Position numbers: made by a program | Part shown: positions 24,001-27,000 of the stretch, in pieces | Layout of the letters: each line of letters starts with the position of its first letter | Position numbering within the stretch: position 1 is the stretch's first letter | Origin: Candidatus Moanibacter sp. | GTDB taxonomy: Bacteria > Verrucomicrobiota > Verrucomicrobiia > Opitutales > UBA2987 | Assembly: GCA_965215885.1 (NCBI GenBank) | Contig: CBDCEW010000002.1 | Span: forward strand, 1-62,732 | DNA: 62,732 nt | Direction of reading: 5' to 3'

Positions 24001-27000
24001 CTGACTCGCGCCGCGAGCTTGATGCGAGTTCGAAATTCGAACATCAAAGGAGTTTTTCGAGATCGCCCTCAGTCAGAGGTGGGTGATCGATGGCGTTATG
24101 CAACAAGAGGAACACGCATGAGTCAAATTATAGCGAAAAGGGAAAGACAAATTCGAAAAATCATCGGAAACGAGCCAAGCTCACAGGGCTCTGTTCCTTT
24201 AATTCTTAATGAAGCGTTAAATTTTGAACAGCAGTGTATTTTTATTGCTGTGCCTAAGGCAGGGTAAAAGGATTCCAGGAAGCAACTAGCTGATAAGCAA
24301 GAAGATAAAAAAAGAGCTAAACAAACCCGAGGGAATCAGTCATGTTAAGATGGGATGAAAGACAAAAAATCTTACCAACTGAATCCTTCGATAGATCGTT
24401 TAACTCTGCGTCTGGTCCTGCCCGAAGAGCAGGAGCGATTCAATGATCTATTGAAACAACATCATTATTTACACAGTGCGGGCAGCGCAGGAGAGACCCT
24501 GCGCTATGTGGCGCAGATCGACGGGCAATGGATGGGCCTGCTCTTGTGGGGGGCCGCATCCTACCGGCTGAAGGATCGAGACGAATGGATCGGGAGGGAC
24601 GGGGCGCAACGGCATGCACGATTGAAACTGGTAGTACAGAACCGGCGTTTTCTGATTTTGCCCGGGGTGGATCTTGCAAATTTGGCCTCCAAGACGTTGG
24701 GTATGTGCCTGAGAGTCTTAGCCGATCACTGGCAGGAGGCTTTTGGCTATCGTCCCTTAGTAGCGGAAACGTTCGTGGACCCACAGATTCACCGGGGCAC
24801 TTGCTACGAAGCGAGCGGGTGGACGCCCTTGGGCTTGAGCGCGGGATATGGCCGCCAACGCGAAGATTTCTATCAACGCCATGAGCGTCCCAAGCAGATC
24901 TGGGTCAAACCCCTCAAGGCTAATGCCCTTGAGCTTTTGCGCGCTTCAGGGCCATTGCCCGCGGCACAGAGCCAGGCGCTCAATGAAACCGATAACTCCC
25001 ATGCGGTCTGCCTCAAAGTGGAACAGATGAGCAGCCTGTGGGAACGCTTCAATCAGATAGAAGACTTCCGTCGTAAAGCGGGCCTTAGATATCGGCTCGC
25101 CACGGTCCTGAGCATGATTGTGCTCGGCACGATGTGCGGCAAACAGACCCTCAAGGGCATCGTGCGCCTGGCCCATCATCTCAATCAAGCCCAATTGCGC
25201 GCCTTACGCTCCTGGAAAAACCCCAAAACAGGCCGCTATAAGGCCCCTTGCTATGATGTCTTCTATCGGGTCTTGCAAAACGTAAAGGCCGAGCTCTTCG
25301 ATAAAACCCTCACCGAATTCATCTGCTTACAAGACGGCTGTTTGCCCCGCGATATTGCCGTCGACGGCAAGACCCTCAAAGGCACAAACACCGAAGAATC
25401 AAAGGCTCTGCACCTGGTGGCCGCAGTCGATCACCAAAGCGCTCAAACCTTAGCCCAAGTCGCTACCGCCGATAAATCCAACGCGATCACCGCCGCCCAG
25501 ACTCTCTTGCGAAAGATGCCCATTTTGGACGGCTCCACCTTCACCTTCGACGCCATGCATAATCAAAAAGAAACTGCCCACATCGTCGTCGAAGAACTCA
25601 GTGCTGACTATGTTATTCAAATTAAAGACAATCAGCCCAACATGCATCAATACGCTCAGAATCTCTTCAGCTCCACCCCCTTTTTCTCCACCAAACCGTG
25701 GACAATGACCATGGGCGACTCGAAATACGTCAAATAGCAACCCATTCTCTAAGCGCTCCCTCTGCCGGCCTGCCCCATGCCCGCCAGTTCGCCTGTGTGC
25801 AACGCACCTTCCATTATCCAAACAAAGCTGAACCTTCCTCTGAACGCTCTTACTACGTAAGCAGTCTCGATCCCGCCGATTTGAGCCCTCAACAGTTCCT
25901 CTCGAAAATTCGCAACCATTGGTCGATCGAAAATAAAAATCATTACCCCAGGGATCGCTTCTTCGATGAAGATCGATGTATGATCCGTAATCATAACGCA
26001 GCCAGAATTCTTGCTGCATGCAGGCAACTGGTTCTCAGCCTCAAGTCTTCCATGGGCGCTGAATCCACTCCCGCACTCTGTGATGATTTCGTCTTTAACT
26101 TACATAAGGCCATCAATATCATCACCTAATGCTCCGAGAATCAAAATACCGTGATCGAAACCCTCCTCCTGCTCAGCGGGACTACCACCAGAGGGAACAG
26201 AACCCCTCGTAGAGGAATGCGGAAGCAATTCTCCGCTTGCACCTCATGACGATTCTCGTATCAGTAGGTTATAGATCTTCCAGAAATCTTCCCAATAATC
26301 GTCTCGTCTAGGATCGAGATCCATCCTGATCACGACACCATTGCGTCTTTTCGTCGCGGCAAAGCGTAGGCCCACAGAATCCTAAAGACGCTTCAACCTG
26401 TCGACGAGTTCTTTGATCGGAGGGGTGGGCAAGTCTCGTAGGTAACTTTTTAAGTTCCGAATAAGAAGCTGCTGGAACTCGATTATCTGCCCATAGATCT
26501 CTCTTTCGCCAATTCCCGGATCGAGTGAAAAATCGCAGGCCTCCTCGCTCAAGGGAGCGCTGGCAATGCTGAAAAGCAAGGCTTCCGCATCCATTCCAGC
26601 ATCGATCTCCGCGCCCATGGAAATGAGGTCGCTCAATTCCACTTCCTCAAATTGTCCGAACAGCCAAATCAAGTCGTATAGATCCTTTTCTCCGCACCTC
26701 GAGAGAAGAGTAGCTGCCTTCATCTTAAAAAGAGTCGGCAGATCGGCGACCACGATTCTTTCGCCGGCGGTGTGATAGTTGCCAATTCGAAATAGATTTT
26801 CGTCAACTACGACATCGAGCGTAAAAGAGTGGTCCTCCAGTCCACACAGTACATGATAGTAATCTGAGGTCCGTTGAGCTTCCGTAAGTTCGGCGCCGAT
26901 TTCGGGCAGCCGAATGGAAGCGCGCAGGGCCCTCTGAAAAGAAAGATCGTCTCTGACGAAGAGATCGATGTCATCCGAGCGCCGATGCCGCGCGTAAAAC

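Follow-up and report, generated by a model that had tools for sequence, protein, structure and literature searches.

The window analysed here is a stretch of 62,732 nucleotides of Candidatus Moanibacter sp. (GenBank assembly GCA_965215885.1, contig CBDCEW010000002.1, positions 1 to 62,732). It contains an ISAs1-like insertion sequence (IS) whose ends were set by the BLAST boundaries common to its copies. The genome holds 47 full-length copies, 30 of them flanked by 10-bp target duplications; the copy at 24260-26153 has no target duplication. The features of this copy are the following.

24260..26153, forward strand: ISAs1-like insertion sequence of 1,894 bp with an N-terminal DUF4338/DruA (GNAT-fold) domain
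24260..24280, forward strand: left imperfect terminal inverted repeat, starting CAGGG; 14/21 positions match the right end
24355..25737, forward strand: ORF1, 460 aa, with DUF4338, DDE_Tnp_1_assoc and the N-terminal half of the DDE domain; its stop lies 49 nt past the tract
24376..24855, forward strand: DruA/DUF4338 domain, aa 8-167 (Pfam, E 7e-24)
25039..25320, forward strand: DDE_Tnp_1-associated domain, aa 229-322 (Pfam)
25363..25365, forward strand: Asp337, presumed first DDE residue going by the family, invariant in 36/36 aligned homologues
25549..25551, forward strand: Asp399, presumed second DDE residue on the same grounds, invariant in 36/36 aligned homologues
25676..25685, forward strand: C5T5 recoding tract (C5 at 25676-25680, T5 at 25681-25685), where RNA polymerase is predicted to insert one U or, in the rival reading, the ribosome to shift by -1 on T_TTC
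25686..26129, forward strand: part of ORF2 past the tract, -1 frame, 147 codons, with HGR-x-E-x-R and W-x-IEN motifs
25929..25931, forward strand: Glu of W-S-I-E-N, presumed third catalytic residue, present in the -1 frame only
26133..26153, reverse strand: right imperfect terminal inverted repeat, pairing imperfectly with the left end

Members of the ISAs1 family typically have a single ORF, a length of about 1.2-1.5 kb, terminal inverted repeats starting CAGGG and target duplications of 8-10 bp. The present element resembles this family (ISAs1, H-repeat/YhhI) in its CAGGG left end, imperfect inverted repeats, 10-bp duplication and match to the NCBIfam ISAs1 model NF033564, of which the two ORFs cover positions 1-184 and 202-313 of 314, both scoring above the cut-off of 70 bits (113.9 and 81.5). 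It differs in its length of 1.9 kb, in the additional DUF4338/GNAT-fold domain and in a transposase split by an apparent recoding site; because of its size, its two frames and the extra domain, we file it as an ISAs1-like variant and not as a canonical member. The DUF4338 domain is predicted to adopt a GNAT fold (AlphaFold pLDDT 81.5), and its best Foldseek match is the phage Mu protein Mom (8bv8; E 2.6e-7, 14% identity), with many generic GNAT acetyltransferases following at ~1e-6; a tie to Mom-like DNA-modifying GNAT enzymes is tentative. Scans of the IS for sigma-70 promoters and terminators returned 1 and 1 matches, compared with 1.4 and 2.5 in shuffled sequences. The first-pass annotation had taken this IS for the most abundant complete one in the genome, a rank that belongs to a 1.92-kb ISNCY-like element with 116 matches of more than 1,700 bp. 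Its counts of 776 homologues and of 51 out of 401 Verrucomicrobiota genomes become, at the stricter cut-offs used here, 759 proteins (E<=1e-10) and 35 of 401 genomes of the same phylum (E<=1e-20).

The division of the transposase into a 460-aa ORF and a 143-aa ORF in the -1 frame was found as described earlier, as was the domain content of ORF1 (DruA, DDE_Tnp_1_assoc and the first half of DDE_Tnp_1), with which Pfam agrees. The length of 143 aa is counted from the GTG at 25698, and ORF2 ends at 26129; the overlap of the two ORFs is 112 nt, not 39 as previously given, since the open stretch of the -1 frame begins at 25626. The predicted full product of the two ORFs has 591 aa. Positions 4-110 of the Pfam DDE_Tnp_1 model match ORF1 and positions 138-198 match ORF2, and a naturally in-frame homologue of 613 aa (P0096) aligns with ORF1 over its first 431 residues and with ORF2 over residues 449-585. 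The Glu of W-x-IEN is present in 122/130 homologues; by junction class, the corresponding column of the HMM alignment holds Glu in 35/37 CmTn, 51/55 TnCm/C-run, 9/9 A-run and 25/26 in-frame homologues. Going by the family, D337, D399 and the Glu of W-x-IEN would form the catalytic DDE triad. The break lies inside the DDE domain, past both Asp residues and ahead of the Glu.

The genome contains 78 C5T5 decamers, 68 of them in the context of this IS, and 14 occurrences of the reversed T5C5. A BLAST search with the junction returned 73 rows, 61 of which are identical over 51 nt. The earlier claim of identity in all copies holds for these 61 and does not extend to two others: the divergent copy C105 (91.8% identical) carries an A for one of the Cs of the run, together with a broken ORF2, and C44, a 47-bp fragment, is altered. 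Both frames are intact in 35 of the 47 full-length copies. A list of variable sites across copies was left out of the analysis, being distorted by one copy with compensating indels. The G406 element, a multi-copy relative that is 86-87% identical (five copies compared, third-position change 23-30%), retains C5T5 but has T_TTG instead of T_TTC, so that the U_UUC motif is lost; a small downstream stem is absent as well. Contigs of all four runs recorded as RNA (metatranscriptome) show no indel at the tract, a result that is uninformative because contigs drop minor forms and records of 32-47 kb suggest DNA in the libraries.

We surveyed 130 distinct homologous junctions, 104 split and 26 in-frame. 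A slippery run lies at the site in 104/104 split junctions and is absent in 25/26 in-frame ones, and the split is retained across the 104 junctions at 30-45% protein identity, as the first reading of a split conserved over a clade of DUF4338-ISAs1 elements had it. The -1 class (46 distinct junctions) comprises 37 CmTn tracts and 9 runs of A8-9; the +1 class comprises 55 TnCm or C7-8 tracts and 3 runs of T7-9. With a search pattern that permitted runs down to 7 nt, the CmTn tracts are 10 nt (25), 11 nt (5) or 12 nt (7) long, none shorter. Their C/T boundary ranges from C3T7 to C8T4, and 37/37 loci keep Cs at 8-10 nt upstream of where the tract ends. Four-fold synonymous sites within the tract hold a pyrimidine in 68/68 cases, compared with 75/123 upstream and 51/87 in in-frame genes. 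Each of the three codon phases is found at the tract end (28, 4 and 5 loci), the phase shared by 28 of the 37 corresponding to a T_TTN tetramer. Inside the CmTn clade the direction flips at four loci, with C7 or T7-9 runs, and A-runs have replaced CmTn at least twice. The A-run junctions are also ribosomal heptamers in 9/9 cases, with an in-phase A_AAA_AAG in 4/9, and seven loci of the ISAs1-like family have an in-phase A_AAA_AAG at a second position.

The direction of realignment on heteropolymeric tracts follows an rU:dG rule stated in the sections covered of PMC5009743, and we compared the tracts with a register model based on it. With a 9-bp hybrid, 37/37 CmTn/-1 sites allow insertion only, with one rU:dG pair as the only cost; since the CmTn loci belong to a single clade, the direction rule amounts to about one independent switch and p values overstate it. 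The register test applied to 116,844 upstream positions found 3 such sites. TnCm or C-run/+1 sites allow deletion in 33/55 and insertion in 0/55 cases, the remaining 22/55 failing at 9 bp; a 7-bp hybrid allows deletion at 54/55. The T-run/+1 loci are exceptions, 2/3 breaking the 9-bp rule. The 10-nt minimum of CmTn fits the RNA:DNA hybrid's length plus one. Mixed direction is itself regarded as a sign of transcriptional realignment in the portion covered of PMC3711429. The model agrees with the earlier proposal of CmUn as a one-base-insertion counterpart of T5C5.

That proposal included help from a 5'-adjacent nascent hairpin, which found no support: in three scans, 5' hairpins showed no enrichment in the CmTn class (4/37 compared with 2/26 in-frame controls), and the weak upstream fold reported for the copy in the window (-1.8 kcal/mol) was seen again. 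Such hairpins are enriched in the TnCm/+1 sister class (21/55 vs 2/26 in-frame; Fisher p 0.004). Downstream of CmTn tracts, folding is slightly stronger than at in-frame loci (mean z -0.38 vs +0.50, p 0.0003 for +4..+44), but not for +4..+64 (p 0.25), and no common stem or spacing was found there, pseudoknots lying outside the fold model. SD-like upstream motifs occur in 6/37 CmTn loci and 5/26 controls. As for ribosomal motifs, the 37 CmTn loci divide into 17 limited to U_UUR or C_CCN tetramers, 11 limited to U_UUY and 9 with a heptamer; at the site in the window the only such motif is the tetramer U_UUC, and a heptamer, an SD and conserved downstream structure are all absent.

We are highly confident that recoding of some kind is used to make the transposase, and transcriptional realignment with insertion of one base at C5T5 is, on the pattern of the tracts, its probable form. 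Of the first reading, programmed transcriptional slippage, the conserved split needed for the full DDE enzyme and realignment as the best-fitting mechanism stand, and the help of a hairpin is not supported. Realignment fits best because of the direction rule, the 10-nt minimum, the 68/68 synonymous sites and the G406 variant, and because neither a conserved ribosomal motif nor an own start codon is present. Against it, no stimulator was found for CmTn. In the parts of PMC5009743 covered, T5C5 without its context gives no detectable slippage, and heteropolymer realignments are described as normally reversed.

Programmed -1 ribosomal frameshifting on a T_TTN tetramer or C_CCT_TTT-type heptamer in the tract, which we consider rather unlikely, has to be taken seriously as a rival, given that in-phase A_AAA_AAG is in use elsewhere in the family, at the second site in seven loci and at the junction in four of the nine A-run loci. 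Here tRNA-Phe would re-pair from UUC to UUU on T_TTC, with Pro-codon pausing or the weak downstream structure possibly helping. The shared codon phase of 28/37 tracts, the heptamers and U_UUY tetramers of 9/37 and 11/37 loci, the slight downstream folding excess and the mRNA free of insertions in contigs all agree with this reading. The sections covered of PMC4066793 describe E. coli as shifting on U_UUY and C_CCU_UUN, with U_UUC as the second-best tetramer. The same source finds U_UUA and U_UUG barely active even with a pseudoknot and tetramers dependent on a strong stimulator, whereas 17/37 loci, and G406 too, offer nothing beyond the barely active U_UUR or C_CCN tetramers, and neither the SD-like motifs nor a shared downstream stem supplies a conserved stimulator. 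Ribosomal frameshifting also leaves the Cs kept at 8-10 nt and the 10-nt minimum unexplained. Both routes might operate at one tract, or by lineage, ribosomal in C4T6/A-run and transcriptional in C5T5/C6T4 elements; this reading, which overlaps with the two main ones, we regard as improbable. C4T6-type tracts are indeed both perfect heptamers and rU:dG-compatible, and A-runs have repeatedly replaced CmTn within the clade, but the routes are not separable by sequence alone and their mixture is unnecessary for the site in the window.

Replication slippage (phase variation), a dead frameshifted element that a rare in-frame copy mobilises in trans, or an error of assembly is very improbable and largely refuted. 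Naturally in-frame relatives do exist (17 loci, once 7 that are split elsewhere and 2 broken ones are set aside), and an in-frame copy could be missing from an assembly that is ~90% complete; however, none of the 47 full-length copies has its frames fused at the tract, and the same run lengths recur in 67 other junction copies and in contigs from four other runs, in line with the earlier view that the tract is no homopolymer assembly noise. The split kept across 104 junctions also speaks against these readings, as does ORF2, which in the G406 comparison changes at 0.30 of third but 0.04 of second positions and is, by this measure, under purifying selection. That two separately translated, coupled polypeptides form a split transposase, with ORF2 starting at GTG 25698, is extremely unlikely, even though this GTG lies 40 nt ahead of the ORF1 stop and RefSeq gives the halves of a Thiodictyon plasmid relative as two CDS. 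The internal start was rejected: a start codon precedes the HGR motif in only 4/37 CmTn loci, none with an SD match, and in G406 the GTG is replaced by GTA. Moreover, the ORF1 stop varies from 4 to 238 nt past the tract, and the tract itself would have no explanation.

Under transcriptional realignment, the element would be an active DUF4338-ISAs1 IS whose full transposase comes only from the minority of transcripts with one extra U. After C5U5 is copied, the 9-10-bp hybrid, weak at its rU:dA end, would let the RNA slide back by one base, into a register whose only cost is one rU:dG wobble where C meets T; the last template A would then be read a second time, giving a C5U6 mRNA from which ordinary translation enters ORF2. 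The site would work in one direction only, because slipping forward would require an rC:dA pair. Most transcripts would yield the ORF1 protein without the catalytic Glu, which would keep the transposase low, and by analogy with IS1/IS3 this protein may act as a DNA-binding regulator. A nascent hairpin seems not to be involved in the CmTn class; in the sister class, the reversed TnCm tract with its 5' hairpin would lose one C, as in the Roseiflexus IS630 element.

We see an even chance that bacterial RNA polymerase responds to CmTn as a so far undescribed realignment signal of the insertion type, one that needs no hairpin, mirrors T5C5 exactly and has its length fixed by the RNA:DNA hybrid, and that one transposon family has kept the same transposase throttle while swapping CmTn (+1 base), hairpin-TnCm (-1 base), A-runs and A_AAA_AAG. 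The literature covered offers one worked-out case of bacterial heteropolymer slippage (T5C5, a hairpin-dependent deletion), and a conserved mirror tract of opposite direction, apparently hairpin-free, would be a direct test of the rU:dG rule. It would also be a new class of recoding signal to seek in genomes, with more than 100 natural sites as a library for testing the rules of polymerase realignment. ISAs1-like elements would join the IS families that use recoding, which would account for the annotation of their second half as a hypothetical protein of its own, and the recoding signals of a single site would have been exchanged repeatedly while selection favoured a low output of transposase. 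That an IS throttles its transposase by frameshifting is an already known kind of biology. Sharma et al. 2011 reportedly discuss two-homopolymer slippage motifs, and CmTn or the ISAs1-like family may already be tabulated there or in Penno et al. 2015. The covered parts of PMC6211511 mention an XmYn motif, and those of PMC3711429 describe six DDE_Tnp_1 frameshift clusters with A-rich sites; two of the three supplementary files of the latter gave no match. Frameshifting is ascribed to IS1, IS3, IS5 and IS630 in PMC5009743, and ISAs1 is never named in 300,000 characters of its text.

In IS1 and IS3, -1 ribosomal frameshifting takes place on A_AAA_AAG or U_UUY with stimulators, and transcriptional slippage on A-runs operates in T. 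thermophilus dnaX and IS1447. The element shares with IS1/IS3 the OrfA/OrfB layout and, by prediction, the low-level fusion as transposase, and some ISAs1-like members have A8-9 or A_AAA_AAG; it differs in that the break falls between the Asp pair and the Glu, and that its own site has no heptamer, SD or conserved structure. Paramyxovirus P-gene editing, in which one G is inserted on AnGm via a G:U pair (PMC5009743, sections covered), is similar in its backward heteropolymer realignment, wobble-set direction and -1 frame, but is carried out by a viral RNA-dependent polymerase on an RNA:RNA hybrid; here the polymerase would be a bacterial multi-subunit one and the hybrid RNA:DNA. A close parallel is the Roseiflexus IS630-family element of Penno et al. 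2015, for which the covered portions of PMC5009743 and PMC6211511 describe hairpin-stimulated transcriptional realignment on T5C5 with loss of one base. In both cases a 10-nt two-homopolymer pyrimidine tract fuses two transposase ORFs, with the direction set by one rU:dG pair, and the +1 sister class of the ISAs1-like family has the same TnCm tract with a hairpin in the same place. The element described here belongs to another IS family, its tract shows no 5' hairpin enrichment, its recoding is predicted from sequence, and with the order reversed, C then T, a base is predicted to be added, not lost, so that the -1 frame is reached.

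The ISAs1-like insertion sequence (IS) is delimited by boundaries shared by 94 BLAST rows (window segment 23901-26600 as the query against the genome). The element and its surroundings comprise the following features, in window coordinates:

22650-23015, minus strand: 121-aa ORF with no Pfam match at E<=0.001
22994-23562, plus strand: RHH antitoxin and PemK/MazF-like toxin pair, upstream of the IS
24260-26153: the ISAs1-like IS
24355-25737: ORF1, 460 aa, with DruA/DUF4338, DDE_Tnp_1_assoc and positions 4-110 of DDE_Tnp_1
24376-24855: DUF4338 within ORF1
from 25626: open stretch of the -1 frame, containing ORF2 with positions 138-198 of DDE_Tnp_1
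25676-25680: C5 of the tract
25681-25685: T5 of the tract
26382-27571, minus strand: HTH protein and AbiEii-type nucleotidyltransferase, downstream of the IS

The HTH and AbiEii-type pair is likely a type IV toxin-antitoxin, and the 121-aa ORF may be related to the C-terminal portion of group II intron maturases. In a folded model of ORF1 (pLDDT 81.5), DUF4338 shows a GNAT fold, with phage Mu Mom as the top Foldseek match (E 2.6e-7), barely ahead of generic GNATs; passages of PMC10853773 also term DUF4338 a GNAT domain. The predicted GNAT fold is supported, with Mom-like activity being only a putative label.

ORF1 and ORF2 are halves of one protein because an unsplit natural homologue of 613 aa aligns to both, residues 16-431 to ORF1 and 449-585 to ORF2. 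The NCBIfam ISAs1 model is divided likewise, that is, positions 1-184 of its 314 fall in ORF1 and 202-313 in ORF2, each half scoring above the cut-off; gain of one base at the tract would give a predicted product of 591 aa. This is an active ISAs1-like element, with 47 full-length copies of 1,891-1,901 bp, 30 of which are flanked by a 10-bp target duplication (the window's copy has none), and with imperfect inverted repeats at its ends (14 of 21 positions matching; CAGGG opens the left end). Both frames are intact in 35 of the 47 full copies, and none of the 47 has the frames fused at the tract. The first-pass annotation was wrong to call it the most abundant IS: a 1.92-kb element has 116 near-full matches (>1,700 bp) in the genome, for example at positions 2512-4426 of contig C8 of the source genome (locus L220) and also on contigs C6, C33, C36, C38 and C105. 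For its 556-aa ORF, an ISNCY model is the best match but scores 258 bits where the cut-off is 325. The element is nested in several copies of the ISAs1-like IS, at positions matching window 25086-25091, 25247-25253 and 25848-25855, where the insertions adjoin TAG/TAC-like short targets.

The genome contains 78 C5T5 decamers, 68 of them within the context of this IS, and 61 of the 73 rows of a BLAST search with the junction are identical across 51 nt. The exceptions at the tract are a 47-bp fragment on contig C44 and a copy on contig C105 that is 91.8% identical, with one C altered and ORF2 broken. This divergent isoform (C105:61529-63423) also has one base inserted where window 25849 aligns; contigs of sequencing runs X2 and X4 contain a variant with this same insertion, so that it is not private to this assembly. 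In a single study, RNA contigs from all four runs span the tract and show no indel; these being assembled contigs, the result is not decisive between mechanisms.

Of 8,000 candidates scored, 759 were homologues of ORF1 at E<=1e-10 (120 of them listed), and 35 of 401 same-phylum genomes had a match at E<=1e-20. We fetched 199 loci, namely 30 from the same phylum, the top 80 among 506 genomic matches, the top 80 among 591 metagenomic matches and nine viral ones; 142 had both halves, 53 had no match to the ORF1 end and four had no ORF2. Anchoring on the K-x-N motif (139 loci) and also on the HGR motif (136) yielded 130 distinct junctions, of which 46 are in the -1 frame, 58 in the +1 frame and 26 in frame. 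A run lies between the anchors in all 104 split junctions and is absent from 25 of the 26 in-frame ones. The -1 class consists of 37 CmTn tracts (a C-run followed by a T-run) and nine A8-9 runs, and the +1 class of 51 TnCm tracts, four C7-8 and three T7-9 runs; the catalytic-column Glu is present in 35/37 CmTn, 51/55 TnCm or C-run, 9/9 A-run, 2/3 T-run and 25/26 in-frame loci. Seven of the in-frame loci are split upstream at A_AAA_AAG and two are apparently broken, leaving 17 unsplit. The A_AAA_AAG site of these seven (L060, L075, L083, L087, L152, L155 and L159) is in phase for a -1 shift, precedes the K-x-N codon by about 165-195 nt and is a second recoding position of the same family. In two close homologues (P0005 and P0006, 65%), ORF1 terminates in ...QPPFSQ, suggestive of a CmTn tract read in a different codon phase. 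In the same-family genome G405, four loci (L203, L210, L213 and L216) hold several pieces of 74-91 bp that share about 90% similarity with the left IS end. None of the five candidates scored, out of 39, matched the IS body; the pieces may be non-autonomous derivatives or belong to a different IS whose ends are similar.

Every one of the 68 four-fold synonymous positions in the final 10 nt of the CmTn tracts is C or T, compared with 75/123 just upstream and 51/87 in the in-frame genes. All 37 tracts have C at positions -10 to -8 and T at -4 to -1, with position -11 free; tracts of 10 nt (25 loci), 11 nt (5) and 12 nt (7) were found with a search pattern that permitted 7. These counts show constraint on the tract and carry no valid p value because the loci are kin and not independent. 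In the same-family genome G406, a multi-copy element that is 86-87% identical, with third positions 23-30% different (five copies fetched), retains C5T5; the next base changes T_TTC to T_TTG, the GTG start has become GTA, the ORF1 stop is shifted upstream and a small downstream stem is gone. We conclude that the element almost certainly contains a conserved recoding site.

In an ORF1 protein tree (quick IQ-TREE, SH-aLRT only; 121 of the 130 rows, the nine with upstream frames <250 aa being excluded), the 37 CmTn loci all belong to a single group of 46 rows (support 95), in which the window's element branches deepest. This group contains at least two separate appearances of A-runs and four of +1 junctions with C7 or T7-9. 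It is surrounded by a grade of TnCm loci, out of which the in-frame genes and another A-run group emerge. The tree is midpoint-rooted and does not give the order of events, and the CmTn/TnCm contrast amounts to about one independent switch.

As to the level at which recoding occurs, separate translation of ORF2 is unlikely, given that only 4/37 CmTn loci have a start codon, none of these with an SD match, and that the ORF1 stop lies 4-238 nt past the tract. A -1 ribosomal shift at the CmTn tract is a real rival, which we consider less likely than a transcriptional insertion. It is favored by the single codon phase in which 28 of the 37 tracts end, by the use of A_AAA_AAG elsewhere in the family and by slightly greater downstream folding in a 40-nt window (z -0.38 vs +0.50, p 0.0003); however, the folding excess is absent in a 60-nt window (p 0.25), no common stem was found, and SD-like motifs upstream are about as frequent in CmTn loci (6/37) as in controls (5/26). 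According to passages of PMC4066793, tetramers rank A_AAG > U_UUC > U_UUU > C_CCY, require a strong stimulator, and are barely active as U_UUA or U_UUG. Only eight CmTn loci have an efficient-type heptamer and one has another heptamer, 11, including the window, have U_UUY only, and 17 have neither, which also argues against a ribosomal shift.

Transcriptional insertion of one U at the CmTn tract is the reading we favor, with some reservation, from the patterns in the tracts themselves. Passages of PMC5009743 describe, for T5C5, a 9-10-bp hybrid that tolerates one rU:dG pair but not rC:dA, and the need for a 5' nascent hairpin. Under the rU:dG rule with a 9-bp hybrid, a one-base insertion is allowed at all 37 CmTn sites and a deletion at none; at TnCm and C-run sites, a deletion is allowed at 33/55 (9 bp), 42/55 (8 bp) or 54/55 (7 bp) and an insertion at 0/55 (9 bp), such that the allowed directions agree with those each class needs. 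Only three of 116,844 upstream positions pass this test. Misfits are 22 of the 55 +1 sites at 9 bp, two of the three T-run/+1 loci, for which insertion is predicted, and the nine A-runs, whose length falls short of what the strict 9-bp test requires. The 5' hairpin invoked by the first-pass annotation as an aid to slippage was not borne out for CmTn: perfect hairpins that reach at least -4 kcal/mol in stability and stop 10-12 nt short of the end of the tract occur in 4/37 CmTn vs 2/26 in-frame loci, and in 21/55 +1 loci, with shuffle z-scores of -0.14, +0.02 and -0.95, respectively. In these 21 +1 loci, a terminator-like GC hairpin lies immediately 5' of the T-run (for example, L058, L168, L185, L154, L172 and L219). 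For the TnCm class, a competing explanation is +1 slippage of the ribosome on CCC_U, because a T follows the C-run in 52/55 loci and the C-run ends at a codon boundary in 51/55.

The literature search, with subscription papers and ISfinder outside its scope, found no paper title concerning ISAs1 recoding; none of the titles or abstract openings returned by searches on slippage and IS elements points to a CmTn case, and the passages covered of PMC5737552, PMC6260861 and PMC1088944 add none, although the motif or family may have been described earlier. In a RefSeq plasmid record, a relative of the TnCm type is annotated as two products, an ISAs1 transposase and a hypothetical protein. Passages of PMC3711429 report six A-rich DDE_Tnp_1 clusters, three each of +1 and -1, and regard a mixture of directions as indicating transcriptional realignment; those of PMC6211511 name two patterns, XmYn and A(T)n, and cite T5C5 as the proven example of XmYn. 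The TnCm/+1 sister class resembles that Roseiflexus IS630 case in full, in both tract and hairpin, an observation in favor of this family recoding at the level of transcription.
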